Assembly (NCBI GenBank): GCA_963977015.1
Contig: CAXBMO010000015.1
Location: forward strand, 32,001-96,000
DNA: 64,000 nt
Source of the DNA: an uncultured bacterium
Lineage (GTDB): Bacteria; Verrucomicrobiota; Verrucomicrobiia; Verrucomicrobiales; DEV007
Direction: 5' to 3'
Made by a program: the position numbers and the translations under genes. Positions 10,974 to 45,736 of this stretch are shown here, in pieces (position 1 is the first letter of the stretch; every line of letters begins with the position of its first letter). The notes below the pieces were generated by a model, which was not told the origin of the DNA, made no database searches, and was given only the letters and a program-made list of their open reading frames with translations.

Positions 10974-11275
10974 TCTAGGGTAGAGTTTAGCTGGTAAAAA
11001 GTGCCTGGGGCCGGGAAATGCTTGATGGATGCGCAACAACGGCAGAATCCCTCCCCTCGGCAGGTGTATCCTTCTCTAGCTGGGTTTCCCCGATTGTCGA
11101 CCGCAAAACCAATGCGGACAAGATACCGGGTATCCTCGCACTATCGCAAGAACATGAATGCGACCCCATTTATCCGTTGACTCTCCATGACGAGGCTGAG
11201 ATTATGAAAATCACTGAAGTTTCTAATTTTTGTTGACTTAAGTTAAAAGTCTAGAAAACTTAATAGAAGAACTTT

Positions 11276-12931
11276 ATGAAAATCCCGCATCGATTTCTCG
11301 TCCCATCCGCCCTTCTGCTTTTGCCTTTCGGCAATCTCGCACATGCTGAAGACTCGGTAGTCTACACGGACATCATTGCTCCTGTATTGGAAGCAAAATG
11401 CGTCTCCTGCCACGGAGCCGACAAGCAAAAAGGAAAGTTGAGAATGGACTCCATGGAGTTCCTCAAGAAAGGCGGCGGCGAAGGACCTGCGATCGTCGCA
11501 GGAAATGTGGATGAAAGCCTCGCGTTGTTTCGGCTCTCCCTGCCGTTGGACGACGATGAGCACATGCCGCCCGAAGACAAGGAACAGTTTACAGAGGCCG
11601 AGACCAAGCTTCTGACCTTCTGGGTGGAGAAAGGTGCAAACCCGACAATTAAACTCAGCCAACTCGGATTGCCTGACGACCTCAAGGGAAGTGTAAACAC
11701 GATTTTGGCATCACTGAAGGCCAAGCCTGCCAAACCCGCACCAACTGCAGAGGAATTGAAACAGGCAGAAGCCAAGAAAAAGCTCGCCGCAGAGGTCATG
11801 GCGAAGGTCAACGCCACCGGTGCCACATTGATGCCGATTGCCCAGAACACGCCCGAGCTCCGGTTTTCCGCACTGAATGTTGCCAAGGACTTTGGCGATG
11901 CCCAGCTCAAAATGCTTGAGCCTGTTGCCGACCAGATTGCGACGGTCGACATTGCCCGCACCCAGGTTTCCGATGCCGGTTTGGCGACAATTGGGAAAAT
12001 GTCCAACCTGAGGCAACTCAAGGTGGAGAAAACAACCATCTCCGACGCAGGCTTGAAACACCTCACCGGGCTCAAGAATTTGGAGTATCTCAATCTCTAT
12101 GGAACTCAGGTAACGGATTCCGGACTCGCTCACCTTTCCGGACTATCCAATCTTTCCCGACTTTATCTCTGGCAGTCGAAAGCGACGAGTGACGGAGCAG
12201 AAAACCTGAAGAAAAAACTTCCCAAGGTGATCATCAACCTGGGTTGGGAACACGAAGCGAAGCAAAAAGCCGTTCAAGTTGCCGCCGCAAAGCCCACTCC
12301 CGCCCCAGCCCAAAAACCGGCGCCAGCGCCAGCGCCCAAACCGACTCCCAAGCCCGCTCCAGCTCCAAAACCCGAACCTAAGCCAGCGGCTGCTCCTGCC
12401 ACACCCGCACCTGCAGCCACCGCTGCGGCAGGCGTAACTTTGGCCGTGCTCGAGTCCCATTTGAAAGCGGCTCACGATGAAGCCAACCGTCTCAACTCGA
12501 CTGCAACCAAAGTCTTGGCTGATGCAAAAGCAGCGTCTGCTGCCGCTGCCACAAGTCTAGACCAGGCAAAGAAAGACGCAGCTGCAAAGCAAAAAGCGGC
12601 GGAGTTGGCCAAAGGTCAAATTAAGGACCGCGAAGCTGCGGTGAAGGCCATTCAAGGAGCTCTGGAGACCACCAAGGCACAGGCTGCGCTCGCGGCCCTC
12701 TCAAAGCGTCTCGAAGCAGATCTTGCTGAAGCTCAAAAACTTCTCACGGATGGTAGGAATGCCGTGACTGCCGCTGATGATGCGGCCAAGAAAGCAACTG
12801 CAGCCATTGCTGCAGCTGAGAAAACTGCTGCCGCCAAGGCGCAGGCTGTTGAGTTGGCCACCAAACAGGTTGCCAAGGTCGAAATGATCACGAAATCGAT
12901 CGTCGCTGCCGTCGCATCTTCCAAGAGCTAA
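11276..12931 (+). CDS. Planctomycete-type cytochrome c domain + leucine-rich repeats + Pro/Ala linker + Ala-rich coiled coil
   Basis: Signal peptide; IAPVLEAKCVSCHG...KGKLRMD...HMPP...WV.KGA; LRR units (NLEYLNLYGTQVTDSGLAHL); PAPKP repeats. Confidence 0.8.
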   Translation: MKIPHRFLVPSALLLLPFGNLAHAEDSVVYTDIIAPVLEAKCVSCHGADKQKGKLRMDSMEFLKKGGGEGPAIVAGNVDESLALFRLSLPLDDDEHMPPEDKEQFTEAETKLLTFWVEKGANPTIKLSQLGLPDDLKGSVNTILASLKAKPAKPAPTAEELKQAEAKKKLAAEVMAKVNATGATLMPIAQNTPELRFSALNVAKDFGDAQLKMLEPVADQIATVDIARTQVSDAGLATIGKMSNLRQLKVEKTTISDAGLKHLTGLKNLEYLNLYGTQVTDSGLAHLSGLSNLSRLYLWQSKATSDGAENLKKKLPKVIINLGWEHEAKQKAVQVAAAKPTPAPAQKPAPAPAPKPTPKPAPAPKPEPKPAAAPATPAPAATAAAGVTLAVLESHLKAAHDEANRLNSTATKVLADAKAASAAAATSLDQAKKDAAAKQKAAELAKGQIKDREAAVKAIQGALETTKAQAALAALSKRLEADLAEAQKLLTDGRNAVTAADDAAKKATAAIAAAEKTAAAKAQAVELATKQVAKVEMITKSIVAAVASSKS

Positions 12932-13180
12932 TATCGAGCCTGACTCTCCTTTCAAAAGAGAAACGATTTCGGAGGAACATCGTTTCGATCAATGGCTGAC
13001 ACCTCGCCTGCGATGAACTGACCGGGCCACCCCATCTCCGGTGGACCCCCGGCTCACGAGGGCCTTTTTACCCAATAAATTTGCGTGCATATCAAGGGCC
13101 ATTCCGTCTTCAAAGGCGGGTGGCCCTAACCCCGTTTCTGTGAAACGAGTTTGATGGGTTCCCGCGGCGTGCTCCTCGAA

Positions 13181-14275
13181 TCAATCTCCTCCGCCGGAGT
13201 TCGCCAAGGCCTGGTATTCCTCAGGAAGTGCTTTGGCGAACCGGGTCTTGTCGATCGCCTTCATGTAGGCTTCCACGGCACCGACCTTACCCTGCACCAT
13301 TTGGTCCCAAATGGCCTCATCCATGAACTGCATTCCGTGTGCCTTGCCACCGGTAATGATGTCATAGAGTTTCTGGGTCGCTCCTTCCCGAATCACCGCT
13401 CCCACAGCAGGAGTTGCCACGAGGATCTCGTTGACGGCGACGCGACCTGGCTGGTCCTCACGCTTCAACAACAACTGCGCGACGACTCCTCGAAGGGAGG
13501 CCGAAAGCATGGTTCGAACCTGCGCCTGTTGGTCGGAAGGAAACACATCGATAATCCGATCAACGGTCTTGCGCGCGTTGTTGGTGTGAAGAGTACCAAA
13601 GACAAGGAGACCGGTCTCTGCCGCGGTTAATGCCAGTGAAATGGTTTCCAAATCACGCATCTCACCCACCAGAACAATGTCGGAGTCCTCCCGCAACGAG
13701 GCGCGAAGTCCATCCGCAAACGAAGGCGTCTGGATCCCGACCTCGCGCTGAGTGATGATGCTCTTCTTGTTGTTGTGAACAAATTCGATCGGTTCCTCAA
13801 CGGTGATGATGTGGCGTGAAAAATTCGAATTGATGTAATCAATCAAGGCCGCCAGCGTGGTGCTTTTTCCGGAGCCTGTCGGGCCGGTCACCAAGACCAA
13901 CCCGCTCTTCATCTGACCAAAGTGTTCGACCACGGAAGGAATGCCCAACTGCTCCAATGTCGCGATCTTGGTTGGAATCAGTCGAAACACGGCTCCCAAT
14001 CCGTTCTGCTGCTTGAAATAGTTGCAGCGGAAACGGGAATCCGCGTTCATCTCGTAGGCAAAGTCGAGATCACCGGTTTCCATGAACTTCTCGAACGCCT
14101 TTGGTTCGCAAATCTCGGAGAGCATGTCTTTGAGCACGTCATGGGTGAGGACACCTTCTGAGATCGGGCTCACCGCGCCGTGCACACGCACTTTGGGCGG
14201 TTGGCCTTCGCTGAGGTGAAGATCGGAACCTCCACCGTTCACCAGAACGTCAAAATATTGGTCGATTACAGCCAT
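13181..14275 (-). CDS. pilT: Type IV pilus retraction ATPase PilT family
   Basis: GSDLHL, GPTGSGKSTT, TVEEPIE, VGEMRDLET and GTLHT motifs. Confidence 0.9.
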   Translation of the reverse strand: MAVIDQYFDVLVNGGGSDLHLSEGQPPKVRVHGAVSPISEGVLTHDVLKDMLSEICEPKAFEKFMETGDLDFAYEMNADSRFRCNYFKQQNGLGAVFRLIPTKIATLEQLGIPSVVEHFGQMKSGLVLVTGPTGSGKSTTLAALIDYINSNFSRHIITVEEPIEFVHNNKKSIITQREVGIQTPSFADGLRASLREDSDIVLVGEMRDLETISLALTAAETGLLVFGTLHTNNARKTVDRIIDVFPSDQQAQVRTMLSASLRGVVAQLLLKREDQPGRVAVNEILVATPAVGAVIREGATQKLYDIITGGKAHGMQFMDEAIWDQMVQGKVGAVEAYMKAIDKTRFAKALPEEYQALANSGGGD

Positions 14276-14310
14276 TTCAGTATGTAGAGAGGAGTTTTCG
14301 AGAAAGTGCG

Positions 14311-15405
14311 TTAGTTAGGAGTGGCAAGACCAAAGTGTTGCCGCATCACCGTTTGATCGATGGAACGCATAATGCATTCCTCCTGCGTGATTTTTCCGGC
14401 GGCATGAAGATCTCGCAGGGCGTCGTCCATCAGGATCATCCCGACATTGCGACCCGTTTGCATGATCCCCGGGAGCATGAAGGTTTTGCCGTCGCGGATA
14501 CTGGCGGAAACGGCGGGAGTATTTACCAGCAATTCCATCGCCAGTGCGCGTCCATTTCCGTCTGCGGTTGGGACGAGTTGCTGGCTGATGACACCGCGCA
14601 GCGACTCGCTCACCATCTGGCGAATCTGACCACGCTGGTCGACCGGAAACACGTCCAACACCCGGTCGAGGGTTCGGGCCGCGCTCCCGGTGTGCAGGGT
14701 CCCCAGAACCAGGTGACCGGTCTCTGCCGCGGTGATGGCGAGCGAAATCGTTTCCAAGTCACGCATCTCACCCACCATAATGACGTCGGGGTCTTCCCGG
14801 AGTGAGGCACGGAGGGCCCGCGCAAATGAATCGGTGTGGAGATGCACCTCCCGCTGGTTCACATGGCAGCGTTTCGAATCGAAAATGTATTCGATCGGGT
14901 CTTCCAAGGTAATGATGTGGTCGTCGCGATCCTCGTTAATCTCGTTCACGAGCGAGGCGAGAGTGGTCGATTTGCCACTGCCGACAGAACCCGTCACCAA
15001 AATGAGTCCGTTGGTGTATTGAAGAAGTGGTTTGATGTGCTGAGGCAGCTTCAGATCATCCATCGTCCGGATTTCCGTGCTGATGATCCGGAAGACGATT
15101 TCCCAGCCAAGGCGCTGTTTCACTACACTGGCTCGGAAACGCCCAAACTCATTGTGATAAGCAAAGTCGATATCACCGCGCTCCATAAACCGCTGAAGCT
15201 CCGGGCCGCTGAGAAAGCCTTTCACCAATCGCTCGGAGTCTTCCTTGGTGATGATGTCTGCGTTCTCCCAAATCGGCTGCAATACTCCAAATCGCCTCCA
15301 GGTTGGCGGCGCCGCGGCAGGCAGGTGAAGATCGGAGCAATCGTATTCGACAGCAACTTTCAGATAGTCATCAACGTGATCAAAAACAGCAATCGTGTCT
15401 GACAT
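14311..15405 (-). CDS. pilT: Second PilT/PilU-family ATPase
   Basis: SDLHL, GSVGSGKSTT, TLEDPIE, LREDPDVIMVGEMRD and GHLVLGTLHT motifs. Confidence 0.85.
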   Translation of the reverse strand: MSDTIAVFDHVDDYLKVAVEYDCSDLHLPAAAPPTWRRFGVLQPIWENADIITKEDSERLVKGFLSGPELQRFMERGDIDFAYHNEFGRFRASVVKQRLGWEIVFRIISTEIRTMDDLKLPQHIKPLLQYTNGLILVTGSVGSGKSTTLASLVNEINEDRDDHIITLEDPIEYIFDSKRCHVNQREVHLHTDSFARALRASLREDPDVIMVGEMRDLETISLAITAAETGHLVLGTLHTGSAARTLDRVLDVFPVDQRGQIRQMVSESLRGVISQQLVPTADGNGRALAMELLVNTPAVSASIRDGKTFMLPGIMQTGRNVGMILMDDALRDLHAAGKITQEECIMRSIDQTVMRQHFGLATPN

Positions 15406-15477
15406 AAGCCAGTTAAAAAGGGGATTAAGAAATTGGGTGGTTGGTTATGTAGGCTGAAACCGCCATCAAATGCAACC

Positions 15478-15888
15478 CTATTGCTTTGAGGACATGCCTT
15501 TCGCCCAGTTTTCGACGGCTTCTGTCGCCATTTTCGTCAAAGTTGGTCGCGCCATGGCGATCCCTCCCTTGACCAATCCCGCCAAAATCGGCCCAACCAT
15601 CGAAGCCTTGCGGGGTCCCTTGACTTTGGCGGTTCCCTGGGGTCGTGGCTTCGTGGGGCGCTTGGAACCCTTTTTCGGAAGGACCAAAAATCCCGTGACA
15701 ACTCCGGCGACCAATACCGCGCCAAGCCACTTCCATTTTCCGTCGTGAAACGACTCCTTGATTTGACCGGGAATGTTGAGAAAATCGCCGACCTCTTCGA
15801 AATCAATCACCAAATCACGACGCGATTCATCGAGAGACGCAATCAGCGCTCCCTTTTTTTCTTCGATGGAAGATTCTGAGCCAGCCAT
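15478..15888 (-). CDS. Single-TM hypothetical protein in the YqjK-like position
   Basis: Short helix, TM segment (WKWLGAVLVAGVVTGFLVL) and basic tail; third gene of a yqjD-yqjE-like cluster. Confidence 0.55.
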   Translation of the reverse strand: MAGSESSIEEKKGALIASLDESRRDLVIDFEEVGDFLNIPGQIKESFHDGKWKWLGAVLVAGVVTGFLVLPKKGSKRPTKPRPQGTAKVKGPRKASMVGPILAGLVKGGIAMARPTLTKMATEAVENWAKGMSSKQ

Positions 15889-16271
15889 TTTTCGTCCTTT
15901 TCCAATTCCTGAAGAGTGGCCTCAAAAATCGGCTTATTACGCACGGTCCTTGCCACTATGATCAGAATACAGCCGGCAACAACATGGAATGCCGCAATTG
16001 CCAATCCCACATACTCCCACTTCGTTCCAAATCGGTCGGCAATAAGATTTACCAGAGCGGCGATCGAAAGCATGTATCCCGTGAACAGGAATCCAGCTCC
16101 TACGGCAATAAATACGGCCTGATCCGCCAAGAGCCTCGAAGCTTCGCGAGTTTCCAGAATGGCGAGTTGGACACGAATCTGACCATAATCAATCAATGCA
16201 CGAAGCGAATCCCGCGCCTGTTGCTTGAGGCTGGATGGGCCGGATTCGTCACGATTTTGAGGATTCGTCAT
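15843..16271 (-). CDS. Phage holin family (YqjE-like) membrane protein
   Basis: RVQLAILETRE, two TM helices and FEATLQELEKD motif; ATG at 16271. Confidence 0.75.
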   Translation of the reverse strand: MTNPQNRDESGPSSLKQQARDSLRALIDYGQIRVQLAILETREASRLLADQAVFIAVGAGFLFTGYMLSIAALVNLIADRFGTKWEYVGLAIAAFHVVAGCILIIVARTVRNKPIFEATLQELEKDEKWLAQNLPSKKKRER

Positions 16272-16311
16272 CTTCGGAGCTGGCGCGAAGCGTGCGACTG
16301 ATCTCAAGCAA

Positions 16312-16674
16312 CTAGCGCCGCAGCAACATCCCAAGAAACACGCCGATTCCAAAGGTTGTCAAAACCGCTTTGGTGGGATTCTCTCGAACGTAAGCCTCCA
16401 ACTCCACTTTGAGATCCTCCACCTTGGCTCGAGCATCGCGAAGCCCCACTTCTGCAACTTCGCGAACGTGGCCGGCTTGCTCGCCAGCCGCGCTTTTCAG
16501 CGTATCTGCCTGTTCACCGGCGACATCGCGAATCTGGCTGGCCCGAGATTCCGCCGCCTGCTTCAATTGAGCAGCTTTTGCACTTGCCGCCGCACGGAGT
16601 TCCTCCGCGGCTTGCAACGCATGAGATTTGGTGGATTCGAGCGGCGTATCTTGATTCTGGACAGGTGAACTCAT
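16312..16674 (-). CDS. DUF883/ElaB/YqjD-family membrane-anchored protein
   Basis: Ala-rich helix ending in YVRENPTKAVLTTFGIGVFLGMLLRR. Confidence 0.88.
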   Translation of the reverse strand: MSSPVQNQDTPLESTKSHALQAAEELRAAASAKAAQLKQAAESRASQIRDVAGEQADTLKSAAGEQAGHVREVAEVGLRDARAKVEDLKVELEAYVRENPTKAVLTTFGIGVFLGMLLRR

Positions 16675-17473: not shown

Positions 17474-17643
17474 TAATCGAATCTTTTTCTCGCGAAACTG
17501 AGAATAGAATCTCAGACCAAACGTCAGAACTGAGCGGATCCGTGGGCATCCGTACCCTAACACGTTTCCAAAAGTCGTAATTACTGAATTTTTTGGAAAA
17601 GTTTAGTTGTTTGTTGGCACAGAATTAGGCATTCTTTTACCTT

Positions 17644-19638
17644 ATGGAAAACGACACTCCTAAAGGTGGCCAAGAGGCCAACGACAAAACGGTCGTCGCG
17701 ACTCTCGCGATGGCCTTGGGAATGCCTTTTCTCCTGGCGTTGTTCATCATCATCTCAAGCTGGAACCACATCGTCGAGCCTAACGACGATTCCGTGGATC
17801 GTCCCCCGCTTGAAACGGCATCCAACGTTTCAGAAGAATCGGCTTCGAAGGCAGCTGCACAAGCCGCCCTTCAAGACGCTAAAAAGAGTAGCGAAACGGT
17901 CGCTGCTGTTAAGCCTGAAACCGAGAAATCGGAAACACCTTCGAAGTCGGATGATCCCCCTGCTGAAACGGTAGCGGCGAAAACCGAACCCACCGAAAAA
18001 GCGGATGAGTCGAAGCCCGCCGCTGTGGTCGCCAAAAATGATGCGCCCGCCGAGGACACCAAGCCGGCCGAAACCACTGAACCTGAGAAACCAAGCCTGG
18101 CCCAGAACATGCAGTCGAGTTCTCTGGAACTCGAACCCAATCTGGTAGCGGCCCAGCCTCCGGTCGAAGTGAAAAAGGATGAGCCGAAAGCAACGCCGGT
18201 CGTTGCTGAGGTGAAGAAAGATGAATCGGCAGACTTGGCTCTCCAAGTCAAAGAACTGAAGAACCAGCTCAAAGCTGCTGAGGCAAAGCTCGTGTCAGAG
18301 CAGGCCGTAAAAGCCAGCCTCCTCGCCAAAGTCACCAATCTTGAAGCCGAGTCGGAGAAAGCTAAGGAATGGCAATCTCTTGGCGCCCGTGCCCAGGCCC
18401 GCCTTGCCGACGCCCAGAAGCTTGCGAACAATCGCCAGGAAAAAATCTCCAAGCTTGAGAACACGGTAAAAACTCAAGCCAACCAGATCGCCGCAATCGA
18501 GAAATCGGCCAAGACGCTCGCCGTAGAGCCGTTCCAGGTAAAACTCCGCTCGCTTGAGGCCGAATATCAAATGATCCTTGCGAGCTTGGACGCATCCAAG
18601 GCTGATGCCGCAAAAGCGGAATCCGCCATTGCCGCTTCCAAGAAACAAGTCTCCGCCGCCAACGCCATGGTCGCGAAACTGCAATCCGATCTCGCCTCGT
18701 CGCAAAAGGCACTTGCTGTTGCCGCGAAAAAGCCTTCCTCCACCGAACCGATGGAAGCAAAGCTCCGCTCGTTAGCCTCAGAAAATGCCACGATGGCTTC
18801 CCAGCTCAAGGACGCGCAATCTCAAATGCTCGCTGCGCAAACCGCGGCGGCTTCCGCGAAGAAGCAGGCTCAGTCTGCGGCAGCGAAGGCCCATCAGATG
18901 ATTTCCAGCTCGAACACGGAGATGATGGAAATGAAGCAAGCGCTGATCGCCGCCCAGAAGGCTCCCAAGAAGGACGCAAATATTGAGGCTTATGAAGCCC
19001 AACTCCGCTCCATCACCGCCGAGAACAAGGCGCTTCGCTCTCGCCTCACCGGCATGGAAGCTCAAATCGCCAGCCACGACACCGCGAGCAACAAGCTGCG
19101 CCATCAAGTGGCATCGCTCAATCGTCAGCTTTCTCAGACCGCGGTTGTGGCCAAAGCTCCCGCCGCAAAACCGACTCCCGACGTCGCCGCGCTTCAGGAG
19201 CTGCATGCAAAGACCCAGGAGCGACTCGCATCGGCGCAGAAGCTCGCGAACACTCGGGGAGAAACCATTCAAACGCTTCAAGCTCAGCTCAAAAGTGCTC
19301 GCGACAAAATGGTTGTGGTCACTTCCAAGCCTCCGGCCGCAGCAGACAGCGCACCGTTGAAAGTCGAGGTCGAAAGCCTTGCCGCAAAGCTGTCTACCGA
19401 ACAAGCTGTCAAAGCCGATTTGATGCGCAAGGTATCCGATCTGCAGACCAAGCTGAAAACGGCCGCCGCAAATTCCGACTGGCTGAACAAGCTGGGCAAA
19501 GAGATCACGATTCTGAAGCAACAGAACGCCGAAACCCAGGCCCGGTTGGCTGAAGTTCAGGCGCAGGCACAGAGTCGCCATGAGAAATTCTCGCAACTTG
19601 AGAGCGCCGTCAGCGACGCGCTCAAAGGCGAGAAGTAA
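17644..19638 (+). CDS. Membrane-anchored long coiled-coil protein with internal repeats
   Basis: N-terminal TM helix, acidic Pro-rich linker, then about 450 aa of Ala/Lys/Gln heptads. Confidence 0.75.
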   Translation: MENDTPKGGQEANDKTVVATLAMALGMPFLLALFIIISSWNHIVEPNDDSVDRPPLETASNVSEESASKAAAQAALQDAKKSSETVAAVKPETEKSETPSKSDDPPAETVAAKTEPTEKADESKPAAVVAKNDAPAEDTKPAETTEPEKPSLAQNMQSSSLELEPNLVAAQPPVEVKKDEPKATPVVAEVKKDESADLALQVKELKNQLKAAEAKLVSEQAVKASLLAKVTNLEAESEKAKEWQSLGARAQARLADAQKLANNRQEKISKLENTVKTQANQIAAIEKSAKTLAVEPFQVKLRSLEAEYQMILASLDASKADAAKAESAIAASKKQVSAANAMVAKLQSDLASSQKALAVAAKKPSSTEPMEAKLRSLASENATMASQLKDAQSQMLAAQTAAASAKKQAQSAAAKAHQMISSSNTEMMEMKQALIAAQKAPKKDANIEAYEAQLRSITAENKALRSRLTGMEAQIASHDTASNKLRHQVASLNRQLSQTAVVAKAPAAKPTPDVAALQELHAKTQERLASAQKLANTRGETIQTLQAQLKSARDKMVVVTSKPPAAADSAPLKVEVESLAAKLSTEQAVKADLMRKVSDLQTKLKTAAANSDWLNKLGKEITILKQQNAETQARLAEVQAQAQSRHEKFSQLESAVSDALKGEK

Positions 19639-36228: not shown

Positions 36229-37347
36229 ATGGCTAACGAAATTCGTATCCCTTCCGTCGGAGAATCCATCACGTCCGGCACAATTGCGGAATGGCTGGTG
36301 GAAGATGGTGCTCATGTCGATTCCGGCGATGCCGTGTTGATGTTGGAAACCGACAAGATCTCCACCGAAGTTCCGGCGGAACACGCGGGAATCGTTCGCA
36401 TTCAGGTGGAAGCCGGTGAGGAAGTCGAGATCGGAGCCGTGGTTGGATCGATTGAAGAAGGCGACGCCGCTCCTTCAGCCACCGAATCCGAACCAAAGGA
36501 AGAGCCAAAAGCGGAAGCCAAATCTGAACCCGATCCTGAATCCGCCACCGAAACCAAGCCGGAATCAGAAGCGCCCGAAGAGTCCGAACCGCAGCCTGAG
36601 CTGAAAGTCGTCGAGCCGACTGCTATATCCGTGCCGGATTCGGAACGCGTGACCCGCAAGCGGATGTCTCCGCTTCGCCGCAAGATTGCCTCACACCTCG
36701 TCAACGCGCAGCAAACTGCGGCAATGCTCACGACCTTTAATGAGGTCGATATGAGCGAAGTGATGGATTTGCGCAAACAGCTTCAACCCTGGTTTGTGGA
36801 GAAGTATGGCGTGAAGCTGGGCTTCATGTCGTTTTTCGTGAAAGCCGTTGTCGAGGCTCTCAAATCCGTCCCCGCCGTGAATGGCCGGATCGATGGCGAA
36901 GACGTGATCCAACATCACTTTTATGATATTGGCGTCGCCATCGGCACCGACAAAGGCCTGATGGTTCCGGTCCTGCGGGATTGCGATCAAAAGAGCTTTG
37001 CGGACATTGAGCGCGACATCATCGCCTACGCCGAACGCGCCCGGGCCGGAAAAATCCAATTGGGAGATCTCCAGGGCGGCGTGTTCACAATTTCAAACGG
37101 TGGAATCTATGGATCCGTCCTCAGCACACCGATTCTGAACTTCCCCCAAAGTGCGATTTTGGGAATGCACGCGATTCAACAGCGCCCCATCGCCGTGGAT
37201 GGCGAAGTGGTGATTCGGCCCATGATGAACCTGGCCATGAGCTACGATCACCGCATCATCGATGGAAAAGAAGCGGTCACGTTCCTCGTCCGCATCAAGG
37301 AATGCATCGAGGCTCCCGCTCAAATGATGGTCGCGGCCAACGCCTGA
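36229..37347 (+). CDS. sucB: Dihydrolipoamide succinyltransferase E2
   Basis: Lipoyl domain [21 protein letters not shown] and SYDHRIIDG motifs. Confidence 0.96.
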
Positions 37348-37725
37348 TCAGGCATCGGCAGAAACGGCGGCGCCTTCAAGCTCCAACTCAATGCGGGGAG
37401 CGTCTCCCCACAGGTCTTCGAGCGCGAAATGCCCACGCTTGTCGGTGTGGAAAACGTGAACAATCACGTCCCCGTAATCGAGCACGACCCATTCGCTTTC
37501 CGGCTTTCCATCCGCGGAAGCCGGAGCCACGCCGTGGTCGTTCTTCAGCTTCTCGCGGATTTCGCGTTGGATCGCCTTGAGATGCGGTTTGGACGTTCCC
37601 GTGCAAATCACAAAGTAATCGGTGATGGAAGAAATCCCTTTCAAATCCAAAACCATGATCTCCTCCGCCTGCATGTCATCGGCAAGTGTTGCGGCGGTTT
37701 TGGCTAACTCCAGTCCTTCTATCAA
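37348..37725 (-). CDS. rsfS: Ribosome silencing factor
   Basis: VLDL...TDYFVICTG, WVVLDYGDVIVHVF and LEDLWGDA motifs. Confidence 0.95.
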   Translation of the reverse strand: MIEGLELAKTAATLADDMQAEEIMVLDLKGISSITDYFVICTGTSKPHLKAIQREIREKLKNDHGVAPASADGKPESEWVVLDYGDVIVHVFHTDKRGHFALEDLWGDAPRIELELEGAAVSADA

Positions 37726-37818
37726 AATGTGCTCGTGTTAAAAATTCGGACACTAAGAGTACGACCGAACTGAGGAAATGCAATCGGCGTTGTCGGCCGG
37801 ATTCGTTTCCGTTAGACC

Positions 37819-37887
37819 TCGCCGTAAAGCGTGTGGCCGGTCGTCTCGGTAATCTTGACGTCAAACAGCTTCCCGATCAGGCGGTCA
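37819..37887. repeat. 69-bp direct repeat, copy 1 (displaced miaB 3' end; att-like)
   Basis: TCGCCGTAAAGC...GATCAGGCGGTCA is identical to 40109-40177; with its flank it reads DRLIGKLFDVKITETTGHTLYGEV-stop on the minus strand. Confidence 0.97.
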
Positions 37888-37928
37888 CGGTGATGACTTG
37901 GTTCCTAAGTCCACACACCCGTCAGCTC

Positions 37929-38780
37929 TCAATCAAGTCTCAGCTTTTGGAGCAAATTATTGACCTGCCCGAATGCATCTGTTTGCACTTGTTCTGGAGT
38001 CAGTTCCGTGAATTCCGGTGCATCCTCCAGAAACCGTCGGACGGTTGTCGGCCCGAAATCATCGCGGCTACGAAACTTCACTGCTATTTTTCGAAATCCC
38101 TCCAAGGCTATTTCATCAGCCAAAAGGGGTATACATCGTTCGGCCAGAGCAGCAATGCCACCATCAAAATTGCGAACCGAGAAATAGATATCGTAGGCAT
38201 CTTTCATCTTGTCCCGTCCACTGAGCGCATAGCCCTTCATCACCAACGTCGCGGGAATGGTAGCGATTCTCACTTCTACGGAATTCATCCGCCCGTCCGG
38301 CATATAGCCTTCCAAGTGCTTGGTGATGTTGTCTCTGATCGCAATCGAACAACCATCCACAGCTTGCACTCGCAGTCCCTCCACCAATGGTGGCCGATTT
38401 TTTACGTATTTGGCCTCGCGCGGCATCAACAAGTCAACAATCACGGGAACTGGCTCACCTCCATCATCTACGTTAATCAAGCGAAGTAGTTGAAAGGGCT
38501 TCAGGTCATCTCCACGCCGATATCCCTGCTTTTCCAGCGTTTCGACCAACTCGGCGTATTGTCCTTCAGAAAGTCCTTTCGGATTCAACCCAAGATCGAC
38601 ATCCAGGGTGCCGAGATGCGCTGGTCTTGCATGGTTCAACAGCAACCAAGGAACCGAACCGCCAACGAGGACCACATTGTTTCGAAACGGTACCAAAATC
38701 TGCCCGAGTTCGATGATAACCTGAAAAACGGCCCGAACATCCCGGTCATGGTAATCAGTTGCAATAATCGGTTCCTTCAT
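37929..38780 (-). CDS. Nucleotidyltransferase, AbiEii/AbiGii-like putative toxin
   Basis: VLVGGSVP, HLGTLDVD (Pol-beta-like GG...DxD), LVMKGYA and RDKMKDAYDIY motifs; ATG at 38780 overlaps the upstream stop (ATGA). Confidence 0.8.
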   Translation of the reverse strand: MKEPIIATDYHDRDVRAVFQVIIELGQILVPFRNNVVLVGGSVPWLLLNHARPAHLGTLDVDLGLNPKGLSEGQYAELVETLEKQGYRRGDDLKPFQLLRLINVDDGGEPVPVIVDLLMPREAKYVKNRPPLVEGLRVQAVDGCSIAIRDNITKHLEGYMPDGRMNSVEVRIATIPATLVMKGYALSGRDKMKDAYDIYFSVRNFDGGIAALAERCIPLLADEIALEGFRKIAVKFRSRDDFGPTTVRRFLEDAPEFTELTPEQVQTDAFGQVNNLLQKLRLD

Positions 38781-39922
38781 AACTGCCAATCCTTAATGAT
38801 TTTGTGTTTTAGGAGATGCTCAGCAGCTTCCTGACCCCGTTCGCCGCCAGAAACCAGATCGAGGTAGGTTTGTATTGGGTTGGTTGCCCACAGATCCGGT
38901 GAAACCTGTTCCGCCCTCCAAAAAACGGCCTCATCACGCACTTGCGTAATTACGACATTTTCACCCTCCGGAACTGTCTGCAACTGCATTGCTGCCGCAG
39001 AGTCCTCGAGATACCGAAAGCCTGGATTCAGGGTGCTCACAATATACAGCTCAGTGAATGGTGAACGCCCAAAGGGCGCATACCATTTGGCAGCAGAATA
39101 GGCGGCGTAAACAACTCGTGGCCGACGCAAATCACTATCAGGAGAGCGTTGATCATGAGCCACCTTGGAAAATTGAACGATGGCGTTTTGCAACTCCGCG
39201 CCGTGTAATGGAGTATAGTATCTCTTGGATTCCCGTTTGCCGGACTTGTAAGCCTGCCCCCACGCGATAAGTAAATCCGATGGGTTTGCGATTTGAACTC
39301 CATTCGGCGTATCCACTGCGTAGTTCTCCTCCAACAAACGATGGGTCACTTTCTGCACCATTCCCAAACTCACTCCCGAGGTTACCGCTTCCACCAACTC
39401 CCTTAAACGCCAAGATCGTTTCACATTTTCGGGATGAAGCATGGTTCGCAACACCAACTGAGCCTTCTCACTGGACCACGCAACCTTCCTAGATTCTTCC
39501 ACATACGGATTCGGGATTCCTTCACGGTGATCGTGAAATCCTCGGACGCTGATGTGACAATTGCCCGCCAAGTCGAACCATCCAAGCCCGGCTTGTTCGA
39601 TGACCTCGCCTGCGCGTCTGGAAATCCAGGGTGCTGCTAGCAGTCCGTAGACTGGCGTTTTCTTCGGCAAATTGAGGGCCGTCAGCAATGATGGTTCACA
39701 CCGGTTACGCTCCAACCGTTGCGCAAGTTTGGCAATCTCAGACGGGCGAATCGAAGATTTGCATTCGACAAGAAAAGCAACCCGACCGAGGGGGCCGTGC
39801 ATGACCGCAGCGAGATCGACGCGGTCGTCGAGCGGGAATTCGGAAACGGTTGGGGGCTCCTCCATCCAATGGTGGTTGAGAAGTTCCAGAAGCGTCACCG
39901 ATAATTGGGAAAAATAATCCAT
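38777..39922 (-). CDS. Type IV TA AbiEi-family (AbiEi_2/DUF2186-like) putative antitoxin/regulator
   Basis: N-terminal VD...LVECKSS, APWIS...GWFDLAGNC, wHTH-like LRELVEAV..GVSLGMVQKV..L, and C-terminal TNPIQTYLDL...GERGQEAAEHL. Confidence 0.8.
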   Translation of the reverse strand: MDYFSQLSVTLLELLNHHWMEEPPTVSEFPLDDRVDLAAVMHGPLGRVAFLVECKSSIRPSEIAKLAQRLERNRCEPSLLTALNLPKKTPVYGLLAAPWISRRAGEVIEQAGLGWFDLAGNCHISVRGFHDHREGIPNPYVEESRKVAWSSEKAQLVLRTMLHPENVKRSWRLRELVEAVTSGVSLGMVQKVTHRLLEENYAVDTPNGVQIANPSDLLIAWGQAYKSGKRESKRYYTPLHGAELQNAIVQFSKVAHDQRSPDSDLRRPRVVYAAYSAAKWYAPFGRSPFTELYIVSTLNPGFRYLEDSAAAMQLQTVPEGENVVITQVRDEAVFWRAEQVSPDLWATNPIQTYLDLVSGGERGQEAAEHLLKHKIIKDWQL

Positions 39923-39931
39923 TTTCGCGGT

Positions 39932-39988
39932 TTGTTCACGTTTTGTTATTGTTCACGCCCATCGTGAACTTCTCCATTTCATGAACAA
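39932..39988. promoter_or_regulatory. Nested palindromic operator upstream of the AbiEi-like gene
   Basis: TTGTTCACG (39932), TTGTTCACG (39949), CGTGAAC (39963) and CATGAACAA (39980). Confidence 0.65.
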
Positions 39989-40095
39989 GCGCAACAGATT
40001 TCTGCAGAATCACTTGAAGCGATTTCAGCTCCTCGAATTGAGTTCAGTGCCGGTACGCTAAAATGCCGATCTTTTGGCTATAGAAAAACGAGGCT

Positions 40096-41451
40096 TCAGT
40101 CACTCACTTCGCCGTAAAGCGTGTGGCCGGTCGTCTCGGTAATCTTGACGTCAAACAGCTTCCCGATCAGGCGGTCATCGCCTTCGATGATGACGATCCG
40201 ATTGGTGCTCGTGCGGCCGCTGAGACGTTCGGCATTTCGCTTGCTGGGCCCTTCGCAGAGAATCTGAACGGTCTTGCCAACCAACGCTTCGTTCTTCCGG
40301 ATCGAGATTTCGTCCACCAAACGCAGCAAATCCTGGTTCCTCTCTTCCTTCACCCGCTCCGGCAGTTGCTCGTCCATCTCAGCTGCAGGTGTGTCCTTGC
40401 GTTTGCTGTAGCGGAATACAAATGCGTGATCGAAATCGACCCGCTTCACGACTTCCTTGGTCGCAAGGTAGTCTTCGTCCGTTTCACCAGGAAATCCGAC
40501 GATGACGTCGGTCGAAATCGCGATGTCTGGCCGGGCTTCCTTCATGCGATCGCAGATTTCGATGAACTTTTCGGCTTTGTAAGGCCGATGCATCCGCTTG
40601 AGAATGCGGTCCGATCCGGACTGCATGGGGAAGTGAACGTGGCTCGCCAGCTTTGGCAGGTAAGTGAACGCGTCGATCACGTCCTGCTTGTAACCGACCG
40701 GGTGAGGGGAGGTGAATCGAATCCGCTCTAGGCCATCGACTTCGTGGACCGCTTCCAGCAATTGGGTGAACGGCGTTTTGCCGTCAACCTTTGGAAACTC
40801 ATGGCGACCGTAGAGGTTGACGATCTGGCCAAGCAGCGTCACTTCCTTGGTTCCGCCGTCCACCAGCCGCTTGACCTCATCCACAATCTGCGAAATCGGG
40901 CGCGCCCGCTCCGATCCCCGGGTGTAGGGCACGATGCAGAAGGTGCACTTCATGTTGCAGCCCTGCATGATGCTCACGAATTCGCTGATCCCGTGGTTTT
41001 TGGTCAGGTGATCGCGAATCGTATTCTGCGATTCATCTTCCTCACCGATATCGACAATCGAATGTCGAAGATCGTCCATCTGCGCATCGAGCCGAGGCTT
41101 GAGAATGGCCTCAACATGATCCACGACCTTGTGATACTTCTGCGTTCCGGCAACGAGATCGACGTGCGGCATCTGCTCAACCAATTCGGCACCGCGACTT
41201 TGCGCCATGCAGCCGAGAAAACCGTAGACCACGTGATGCCGTTCACGACGCAACTTACTGAGCCTCGCCATATTGCCGAGTGCCTTCTGCTCTGCCTGAT
41301 CGCGCACACTACAGGTGTTCATCAGTACGACATCCGCCTCCGTCTCGTCCGCCGTCAGGGTATAACCACGCTCGACGAACATCTGCTCCACCTGTTCGGT
41401 ATCGCGAACGTTCATCTGGCAGCCATAGGTGCGAATGTAGACTTTGGGCAT
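40096..41451 (-). CDS. miaB: tRNA-2-methylthio-N6-isopentenyladenosine methylthiotransferase
   Basis: TYGCQMN, NTCSVR, GCMAQ, radical SAM CNMKCTFC, RIRFTSPHP and C-terminal TRAM domain. Confidence 0.97.
   Translation of the reverse strand: MPKVYIRTYGCQMNVRDTEQVEQMFVERGYTLTADETEADVVLMNTCSVRDQAEQKALGNMARLSKLRRERHHVVYGFLGCMAQSRGAELVEQMPHVDLVAGTQKYHKVVDHVEAILKPRLDAQMDDLRHSIVDIGEEDESQNTIRDHLTKNHGISEFVSIMQGCNMKCTFCIVPYTRGSERARPISQIVDEVKRLVDGGTKEVTLLGQIVNLYGRHEFPKVDGKTPFTQLLEAVHEVDGLERIRFTSPHPVGYKQDVIDAFTYLPKLASHVHFPMQSGSDRILKRMHRPYKAEKFIEICDRMKEARPDIAISTDVIVGFPGETDEDYLATKEVVKRVDFDHAFVFRYSKRKDTPAAEMDEQLPERVKEERNQDLLRLVDEISIRKNEALVGKTVQILCEGPSKRNAERLSGRTSTNRIVIIEGDDRLIGKLFDVKITETTGHTLYGEVSD
40109..40177. 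repeat. 69-bp direct repeat, copy 2 (inside the miaB 3' end)
   Basis: Identical to 37819-37887. Confidence 0.97.
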
Positions 41452-41570
41452 CGGTAACGGGGGTGCAGACTATGCTCGGAAAATGCCCGGAAACAAGCGG
41501 GGAACCCGATTTCCCGCAAACTCACAGGACTGAATGCAGACGAATCCAAGAACCGTCCGTATCCGCTTCG

Positions 41571-44682: not shown

Positions 44683-44970
44683 TCAGCCAACCGGGTGAAA
44701 AACCCAAATGCGCTTCACGTATTCGCCATACACGACCCAACTCGGCTCCTCGGTCAGCAATTGGGGACGAAGCGCAACGAATTCCAGATCCTCGAATTTC
44801 TTCTCGCGGGATGGAACCTGAACCGAGCCGCCTCCCGGCGCCACGTCCGTATCGGTTTCCATCACCTGGAGTTTAATCACGAACCAAACCGCCACGGCGA
44901 TCGCCAAGGCTGCCAGCTTCGCTTTCCAGTCGTGGAGGAACAGATTCTTCAGAAGGCGTGTCAGTTTCAT
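44683..44970 (-). CDS. Short CdaR/YbbR-like N-terminal TM peptide
   Basis: NLFLHDWKAKLAALAIAVAVWFVI resembles the CdaR N-terminus; sits immediately downstream of cdaA and overlaps it by 98 bp. Confidence 0.55.
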   Translation of the reverse strand: MKLTRLLKNLFLHDWKAKLAALAIAVAVWFVIKLQVMETDTDVAPGGGSVQVPSREKKFEDLEFVALRPQLLTEEPSWVVYGEYVKRIWVFHPVG

Positions 44971-45736
44971 TCGGCAATAAAAGTTCGTAAAGGCGACGGT
45001 GGAACGCTTCGTCACTCAAATTCTGTTCGAGCTTGCCATCGACGGCAATGGAAAGATTCCCAGTTTCCTCAGAAACAACCAGGGCAATCGCGTCAGACTC
45101 ATCACTCACGCCCATCGCCGCGCGATGTCGCAATCCAATGCTGCGATCCGAAAGCTCTTTCTGCGAAACCGGAAACACGCAACCCGCACCTTCAATCCGC
45201 TCATCGACCACCCGAAAAATCACACCGCCATCGTGCAGCGCCGCCTTGGGATGAAAAATCGCCAGCATGATCTCCGGCGTCAGCTTTGCATCCAGCTCAA
45301 CCCCAGTATCGAGCAGGTGCTTCAGGCTGATTCCCCGTTCAATCGCGATCAAGGCCCCAATTCGGCGTTTCGAGAGAATCTGGGCGACTTCCGCCAGTTC
45401 GTCGACCGTCTCGCGACGTTGTGCGATCAAAAACGAACTGAATCGGCTTCCCAGCTCCGCCAAACCGCGTCGCAATTCCGGCTGGAACAGGATGATGAGG
45501 GCAATGGCCAGCAAGGCCGAAAAGCTTTTCACCAACCATTCGATGACTTCCAACTGGAGATAGCGCGAAAGCAGCGTCAGTCCGATGATGACGAGAAGCA
45601 GGCCGATCAAGATCCGTGCAGCCCGGGTCGCCCGGAAGTAAATGTACCCCTGGTAAACGATGACCGCGAGAATCAGAATCTCAACCGCGGCACGCCACCA
45701 GTCGGTTTCTTGAAGCAATTCAGCGAAAGGTTCCAT
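44873..45736 (-). CDS. cdaA: Diadenylate cyclase CdaA
   Basis: Three TM helices, FQPELRR.L, GALIAIER, LHDGG, GLRHRAA.G and VVSEETG motifs. Confidence 0.95.
   Translation of the reverse strand: MEPFAELLQETDWWRAAVEILILAVIVYQGYIYFRATRAARILIGLLLVIIGLTLLSRYLQLEVIEWLVKSFSALLAIALIILFQPELRRGLAELGSRFSSFLIAQRRETVDELAEVAQILSKRRIGALIAIERGISLKHLLDTGVELDAKLTPEIMLAIFHPKAALHDGGVIFRVVDERIEGAGCVFPVSQKELSDRSIGLRHRAAMGVSDESDAIALVVSEETGNLSIAVDGKLEQNLSDEAFHRRLYELLLPNETDTPSEESVPPRLESEAGSLGDRRGGLVRD

Follow-up and report, generated by a model that had tools for sequence, protein, structure and literature searches.

A recombinase-less two-gene AbiE-type islet, very probably inserted by a Campbell-type crossover at the 3' end of miaB in uncultured Verrucomicrobiales

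Contig CAXBMO010000015.1, from an uncultured member of the Verrucomicrobiales, carries a small islet at the 3' end of miaB that contains two genes and is bounded by direct repeats of that gene end. We analyzed this islet within a 64-kb stretch of the contig (here referred to as the window, with position 1 as its first letter). The evidence presented here makes it very probable that the islet was acquired horizontally and inserted by a Campbell-type event, whichever enzyme catalyzed it. With more moderate confidence, we favor a complete account in which a minimal AbiE islet of this kind is maintained and moved mainly by host recombination.

A repeat search over positions 36500 to 41500 returned only one outstanding repeat family, consisting of two copies (37816-37887 and 40106-40177; 72 nt, 99% identity, one mismatch) at a spacing of 2,290 bp. 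The exact part of this repeat is 69 nt long (37819-37887 and 40109-40177; 69 of 69 positions), with the same coordinates that had been given in the original prediction for this DNA. As a comparison set, we used 80 related miaB loci (L001 to L080) taken from genome contigs with MiaB as the query, each with about 10 kb of flanking sequence; all but two are from Verrucomicrobiota, and all close relatives of the window are metagenome-assembled genomes (MAGs). When the 72-mer was searched against the window and these 80 loci by local blastn, the second copy was recovered with an E value of 3.6e-34, while no relative yielded a match better than 87.7% over 57 nt, which argues that the identity of the two copies is due neither to chance nor to plain conservation. 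The unit of the islet is 2,290 bp, comprising 2,218 nt of unique DNA and one 72-nt repeat.

All genes at the miaB-rsfS locus, including those of the islet, lie on the minus strand. The proximal, attL-like copy of the repeat (40106-40177) encodes DRLIGKLFDVKITETTGHTLYGE(V) of MiaB and reads through to ...GHTLYGEVSD-TGA, the end of a 451-aa open reading frame (ORF) with UPF0004, Radical_SAM, and TRAM domains (40096-41451) that appears to be the functional copy of miaB. The distal, attR-like copy (37816-37887) reads through to ...GEV-TAA, with a stop at 37812-37814 that lies 86 nt upstream of rsfS (37348-37725; ribosomal silencing factor, PF02410, E 6e-32). Both junctions are in frame. The closest relative of the window (L001; 95% amino acid identity in MiaB and 91% in RsfS) has an empty site in which miaB ends in GEV* and is followed by 86 nt and then rsfS, and its synteny with the window extends across sucA, sucB, rsfS, miaB, usp, and other genes besides. 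Local alignment of the L001 spacer with the distal flank in the window gave a score of 85, compared to a mean of 13.5 for shuffled sequences, none of which scored as high (0/1,000). Because the distal repeat and the segment beyond it (37726-37815; the last base of the Val codon, the stop, and the 86-nt spacer) are orthologous to the L001 empty site, they represent the native end of miaB, displaced from the rest of the gene, with rsfS as the native downstream neighbor. The tail at the proximal copy (40096-40105; the last base of the Val codon followed by Ser-Asp-stop) belongs to the inserted DNA and replaces the native gene end. The L001 structure is what recombination between the two window repeats would yield, as had been anticipated in the proposal that excision would restore a compact miaB-rsfS locus. 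One target-derived segment is present twice, element DNA supplies the new gene end, and the native end has moved away together with its flank, an arrangement that corresponds to one reciprocal crossover joining a circular element to the chromosome. This geometry is well supported by the sequence comparison, and the Campbell-type signature with a replaced gene end that had been proposed from the repeats is borne out by it.

A second occupied site is present in another species (L003; 87% identity in MiaB). Here the same cassette directly follows miaB in a collinear arrangement, with nucleotide identities of 82.7% and 83.4% and amino acid identities of 84 to 85%. The L003 miaB ends in GEVGD* and has its own miaB-end repeat (11309-11347 and 15458-15496; 38 of 39 positions identical), the distal copy of which lies behind abiEii and reads through to GEV-TGA. 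The 3' edge of identity in L003 lies one base beyond that in the window (GGCGAGGTT in L003, GGCGA(A/G)GT in the window), whereas the 5' (left) edge differs, with a repeat of 39 nt in L003 versus 69 to 72 nt in the window. The margins between abiEii and the distal repeat (26 nt in L003, 41 nt in the window) are unrelated, with 1,897 of 2,000 shuffles scoring as high. Beyond its distal repeat, L003 has an ankyrin-repeat gene and no rsfS, and this DNA is unrelated to the window flank over up to 10 kb downstream. The repeats are thus identical or nearly so within each host, though the segment differs by about 13 to 15% between the hosts and from L001 (87% over 47 nt by blastn for the window versus L003). 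Candidate leftward extensions of the repeat were not significant in either genome: GTCATCA(T/C)CG in the window gave a score of 15 (73/1,000 shuffles; 307/2,000 with a longer flank), and GGCGACT in L003 was matched by 134 of 2,000 shuffles. Within the L003 cassette, positions 12535 to 14517 are occupied by an insertion sequence (a 372-aa DDE_Tnp_1 transposase and a DUF6788 ORF) with terminal inverted repeats and a 9-nt target duplication. It interrupts abiEi 16 codons before the end of the gene, and the L003 toxin gene retains its nucleotidyltransferase (NTase) motifs.

We next compared synonymous divergence (dS, by the NG86 method), for which values above ~1.5 are saturated, so that only the ranking of the cassette far below the host is safe. 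Between the window and L003, dS was 1.85 for miaB, 0.64 for abiEi, and 0.60 for abiEii, and third-position identity was 0.50 for miaB and 0.68 to 0.70 for the cassette genes. For the window and L001, 9 of the 10 shared genes yielded a dS value (folP did not); seven of these values were 1.36 to 2.0, the exceptions being cdaA (0.70) and a cytochrome c gene (3.9). The cdaA-like diadenylate cyclase gene (44873-45736) encodes a protein with 97.6% amino acid identity to that of L001, and its low dS could reflect either strong constraint or a more recent exchange. On these sequence comparisons, it is clear that the cassette copies of the window and L003 diverged from each other long after their hosts had split. 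Because the dS of the cassette is so far below that of the hosts, simple vertical inheritance from one ancient insertion is ruled out, and the cassette must have moved horizontally, with two or more separate insertions of the same two-gene unit at the end of miaB. Acquisition of a complete, already occupied miaB allele through flanking homology was also considered and is unlikely, because the window miaB is not mosaic (90-nt sliding identities to L001, L002, and L003 do not switch toward its 3' end) and the DNA downstream shows no synteny.

The possible origin of the replacement tail is illustrated by a third relative (L002; 92% identity in MiaB), in which miaB ends in GEVCD* (region 11139-11270) and no cassette is present in the 449 nt before the contig end. 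The DNA following this stop resembles the native flank in the window (2/1,000 shuffles). Because the CD* tail of L002 resembles the SD* and GD* tails of the window and L003 islets, the islet tail looks like a native variant of the clade, which suggests that the miaB 3' end carried by the element (here referred to as the hook) was once copied from an L002-like allele. Of the 80 loci, L003 alone repeats its miaB end downstream, the remaining matches being exact stretches of 13 to 15 nt with E values of 0.001 or weaker, and tblastn recovered AbiE homologues in L003 only. The suggestion that the end of miaB is an attB hotspot is therefore weak, since just 1 of the 80 related loci (L003) is occupied, and by the same cassette rather than by different cargo. 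Likewise, comparison of miaB-rsfS among relatives yielded the anticipated empty site, in L001, but no locus with different cargo, and the search for integrases tied to miaB 3' duplications found none among the 80 loci. In the remaining loci (L004 to L080), MiaB has variable C-terminal extensions after TLYG (e.g., DPVLH*, and up to ~30 residues ending in ...ALQMADSVRI*), and rsfS is the downstream neighbor in none.

The cargo of the islet consists of two co-oriented ORFs whose stop and start codons overlap as ATGA. The first (38777-39922) encodes a 381-aa protein that matches AbiEi_2 (PF09952; E 5.6e-6, 27.2 bits versus a cutoff of 21) over residues 211 to 371 only. The second (37929-38780), read from the ATG within the overlap, encodes a 283-aa protein that matches the AbiEii NTase toxin family (PF08843; E 9.6e-6, 26.1 bits versus a cutoff of 22.5) and the PADLOC AbiEii profile (E 2.6e-4). 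In a collection of 5.8 billion proteins, we found 461 relatives of the partner and 790 of the toxin at an E value of ≤1e-3, several of which carry the NCBI names AbiEi family antitoxin or AbiEii/AbiGii toxin. The nearest relative of both proteins is the L003 copy (85%), and the next ones stand at 40% (partner) and 65% (toxin); the cargo proteins themselves are present on 3 and 4 contigs in this collection. A sequence search of the PDB with the cargo proteins returned nothing relevant. In the toxin, residues G40, G41, D60, D62 (D60-x-D62), and D116 are invariant in 20 aligned NTase homologues, and we take G40-G41, D60/D62, and D116 to be motifs I to III by analogy to Pol-beta NTases. Because the invariant residues are all present in the window protein, this AbiEii-family toxin looks intact. 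From these matches, we predict that the cargo functions as a two-gene AbiE-type toxin-antitoxin or abortive-infection cassette with the partner gene first, which gives a family to the defense or addiction cassette that had been suggested for the islet.

An AF2 model of the partner, built on 36 family members (pLDDT 90.6, pTM 0.81), predicts a nuclease-like N-terminal domain, a putative winged helix (residues ~150 to 212, read by eye), and the C-terminal AbiEi_2 domain. In Foldseek comparisons, the nearest PDB folds for the N-terminal domain (residues ~20 to 135) were the PD-(D/E)xK nucleases EndoMS/NucS, the FokI cleavage domain, Can2, and MspJI, and those for the C-terminal domain were the NTase toxin fold of MenT1 and viral poly(A) polymerases; all E values against the PDB were 2e-3 or weaker. 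Among the 36 family members, D36 and K55 are each retained by at least 90%, and Glu is the majority residue at position 53 (E53). The nuclease-like domain is a trait of the AbiEi_2 partner across the family, and homologues of the partner occur in many unrelated genomes and plasmids.

The noncoding margins of the islet measure 173 nt (39923-40095) on the miaB side and 41 nt (37888-37928) on the rsfS side. The part of the larger margin nearest the cassette (39923-40012) is conserved with L003 (score of 59 versus a shuffle mean of 14.8; 0/1,000 shuffles) and is a probable promoter/operator region. It contains four GTTCA(C/T)G/CGTGAAC half-sites at 39932-39988, upstream of abiEi, of which two are direct CGTGAACAA copies, set 17 nt apart, and the others are inverted partners. 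AbiE systems are described in PMC3985639 as stabilizing mobile elements and as able to confer phage resistance, with AbiEi autoregulating through inverted repeats. Because the layout of the half-sites fits these autoregulatory repeats, we read them, by analogy, as a likely operator. The rest of this margin (40013-40095) is an 83-nt spacer unique to the window islet: blastn found no counterpart in L003, in the 80 loci as a whole, or elsewhere in the window. An Rfam search of positions 37300 to 40400 at an E value of ≤1 returned no match, and a promoter and terminator scan of the sense strand found nothing over shuffle level. By eye, the 173-nt margin first looked as if it had diverged from a second native miaB-rsfS spacer, in which case the duplication would be much longer, but shuffling led us to reject this idea; the scores were 13 against the window distal spacer (818/1,000 shuffles as high), 14 against L001 (620/1,000), and 14 against L002 (785/1,000). 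The 41-nt margin, which would form the P arm, holds no ORF and bears no similarity to its 26-nt counterpart in L003.

Neither islet ORF matches a recombinase in Pfam, PADLOC, or NCBIfam, so that the ORF and profile searches agree with the earlier description of two cargo genes and no recombinase. A Pfam scan of 52 additional window ORFs (≥100 aa each), at an E value of ≤1e-5, likewise found no integrase, transposase, or resolvase; these ORFs belong to housekeeping and Planctomycete/Verrucomicrobia-type families. There is no tRNA or tmRNA gene in the 64-kb window, and the GC content of the islet (~0.49 to 0.54) compares with 0.555 for the window. One small ORF elsewhere in the window (15843-16352), among unassigned small ORFs and adjoining two T2SSE-type ATPase genes, has a holin-type domain (Phage_holin_3_6, E 2.3e-11); no other phage genes turned up in the Pfam scan of the window ORFs.

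We propose that the islet would exist at times in a circular form carrying the hook and that a single reciprocal crossover between the hook and the chromosomal 3' end of miaB would insert it. Such a crossover would leave the host miaB intact with an element-borne tail (SD* in place of the stop) and displace the native end, with its stop and the region upstream of rsfS, to the far side. The minimal form would predate the last common ancestor of the window and L003 copies, and the islet would move as a two-gene unit on recombination functions encoded elsewhere. For its present-day maintenance and movement within a species, we favor host homologous recombination or gene conversion across the hook, because the repeats match the allele of each host, vary in length and left edge, and come without conserved arms. 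The identity between attL and attR equals that between element and host wherever the crossover falls, and so the hook either matched each host before insertion or was homogenized later. A site-specific recombinase acting in trans may have been required when the element passed from one lineage to a diverged one. After insertion, the toxin-antitoxin pair would stabilize the islet by addiction and may protect the host against phage.

Several observations weigh against this account. Only two occupied sites are known, so movement as a minimal unit rests on n = 2. A hook that differs by ~13 to 15% between hosts would strongly hinder RecA-dependent integration across lineages, and because of this divergence another catalyst or unsampled intermediate hosts would be needed. 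The near-coincident 3' edge of identity in the two genomes is also what a fixed recombinase core site would produce, and the junctions are known from assembled sequence. Perfect identity of the repeats can reflect gene conversion rather than recency. For this reason, the proposal that the insertion is recent stands only in part: a 69/69 repeat in a genome whose host dS to its nearest relative is ~1.5 is consistent with it, but gene conversion gives the same picture. As to the cargo, the Pfam matches of both proteins barely exceed their cutoffs, and an NCBIfam search with both returned 0 matches.

The strongest competitor, which we consider possible but distinctly less probable, holds that the islet is the remnant of a larger element that had a tyrosine- or serine-type integrase with specificity for the 3' end of miaB, that decayed to its att sites and an addictive AbiE pair, and that is, or was, moved in trans or in cis by an integrase-bearing relative. 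Integrases often target conserved motifs, and TGHTLYG, a conserved motif of MiaB, lies within the hook. It would also fit that the window and L003 agree to within one base in where identity ends on the 3' side, and RecA-dependent pairing would be difficult across ~15% divergence at a change of lineage. Elements of this sort are known from streptococci and other Firmicutes as cis-mobilizable elements (CIMEs), defined in PMC5704250 as flanked by attL and attR, including the 3' end of the target gene, and lacking integration and transfer genes. The islet, with its attL/attR-like repeats that include a gene 3' end and no integration or transfer genes, fits this definition. However, CIMEs are decayed integrative and conjugative or integrative and mobilizable elements for which an intact, integrase-bearing relative is normally known, and 0 of the 80 loci have an integrase-bearing island flanked by miaB-end repeats. 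The islet also differs from CIMEs in having two genes only and in repeats that match each host's allele and vary in length. Since both copies, separated by a dS of ~0.6, already have this two-gene form, decay must have preceded their spread or recurred identically. The P arms of 41 and 26 nt are unrelated and leave no room for conserved arm sites. In addition, a crossover at a fixed position should leave donor-type differences in one of the repeats, yet 69/69 and 38/39 positions are identical.

One ORF could be cited in support of such an integrase. In L003, a weak integrase-like ORF lies 2.1 kb beyond the distal repeat (17612-18922; 436 aa), with a subthreshold match to Phage_integrase (PF00589; E 1.6e-3, 18.6 bits versus a cutoff of 27.1) that covers the N-terminal part of the catalytic domain only. 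However, this ORF lies outside the repeats, adjoins a 5'-truncated DUF1501 gene, and has a degenerate appearance, with no clear catalytic C terminus when its 3' end was translated in three frames. From its sequence, it is probably a degenerate integrase of another element. Taking these points together, we give host homologous recombination a slight edge over a CIME-type recombinase acting in trans.

A comparable element is the microcin H47 island of Escherichia coli, a 13-kb, recombinase-less island that, according to PMC3191183 and PMC5426353, excises and integrates through direct repeats by unidentified host functions in a RecA-independent manner, with crossovers falling in several identity segments. 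Like the islet, it is a small, repeat-flanked element that encodes no recombinase of its own. Unlike the islet, it spans 13 kb, with extensive imperfect repeats and a microcin system as cargo, and its mobility has been demonstrated experimentally, whereas that of the islet is deduced from comparative data. The target gene also has parallels. The modification-enzyme genes dusA and thdF/mnmE and the MiaB-like rimO are described in PMC4482086 as targets of integrase-bearing islands or prophages, which would suit an integrase-driven origin. As with those elements, the attachment site is a housekeeping gene of the same functional class that is reconstituted by element DNA. In contrast to the islet, the elements described there encode their own integrases, and those at dusA insert at the 5' end of the gene. 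Among the papers listed by full-text literature searches (with subscription journals and supplements outside their scope), none reports miaB itself as an attachment site.

The same observations could be taken further. In this bolder and rather improbable reading, a toxin-antitoxin pair plus a few dozen bases of the 3' end of a housekeeping gene would suffice for repeated, targeted Campbell insertion across species, the hook being retemplated on each host's allele by host recombination, so that such recombinase-free islets would form a distinct class of minimal mobile elements rather than decayed islands. As an alternative form of this reading, the modeled nuclease-like domain of the AbiEi_2 partner might aid insertion.

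The remaining explanations fare much worse. An ancient insertion in the lineage ancestral to the window and L001 to L003, passed down by vertical descent, with precise loss from L001 and L002 and with its repeats kept identical by gene conversion, would account for the same cassette at the same position in two lineages and for a cassette amino acid identity (84 to 85%) near that of MiaB (87%). It is nonetheless very unlikely, since the cassette dS of 0.60 to 0.64 is about one-third of the miaB dS of 1.85 and is below the host dS even to the nearer L001, and since the two elements agree neither in the left edge of the repeat nor in the P arm and have unrelated DNA downstream. We assign a similarly small chance to self-promoted insertion, in which the PD-(D/E)xK nuclease-like domain of the partner would cut at or near the miaB end and repair would install the cassette, so that the islet would not truly be recombinase-less. 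The predicted resemblance to EndoMS/NucS, FokI, Can2, and MspJI and the conservation of D36, K55, and, as the majority residue, E53 are what this idea draws on; against it, the structural matches are all at 2e-3 or weaker, the domain is shared by relatives in many unrelated genomes and plasmids, and double-strand-break repair (homing) would create no 69-nt duplication. One homologous cassette on a Ralstonia megaplasmid (L081; n = 1) also has no flanking direct repeat of at least 20 nt. Finally, a chimeric join or collapsed strain variants could in principle fake the duplication, the source appearing to be a metagenome-type assembly and the close relatives all being MAGs, but such an artifact is scarcely credible given that a 69-nt repeat is below the usual read length and easily assembled through, that the same architecture occurs independently in another species on the 180-kb contig of L003, that the cargo proteins recur on 3 and 4 contigs of the protein collection, and that both junctions are in frame and biologically coherent.

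Within the AbiE type IV toxin-antitoxin systems (AbiEi-AbiEii and the mycobacterial MenAT), the islet cassette shares the bicistronic layout with the partner gene first, upstream inverted repeats with a putative regulatory role, and a DUF1814/AbiEii Pol-beta-type NTase toxin with an intact G-[GS]...DxD motif. It differs in its partner, which belongs to the AbiEi_2 family (PF09952) and is predicted from the structural model to have an extra N-terminal nuclease-like domain and an NTase-like, MenT1-related C-terminal domain.

Defense and toxin-antitoxin genes are known to be highly mobile, though the movement of small recombinase-less cassettes between genomes is poorly documented. The reach of the present case is modest for now, as it concerns uncultured Verrucomicrobiales with two occupied sites and one empty site. 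It nevertheless offers a clean triplet in which one occupied site can be set beside its empty counterpart and beside a further occupied site whose host is another species and whose downstream flank is unrelated, together with a molecular-clock argument from dS that the two-gene unit itself traveled. It also raises the testable question of whether a 40- to 70-nt copy of a conserved gene end suffices for targeted insertion and which host or trans-acting function catalyzes it. What is new here is the target gene, the minimal size of the element, and evidence from relatives that spread takes place in this minimal form, and these data would add miaB to the short list of translation-related modification genes that are used as attachment sites.

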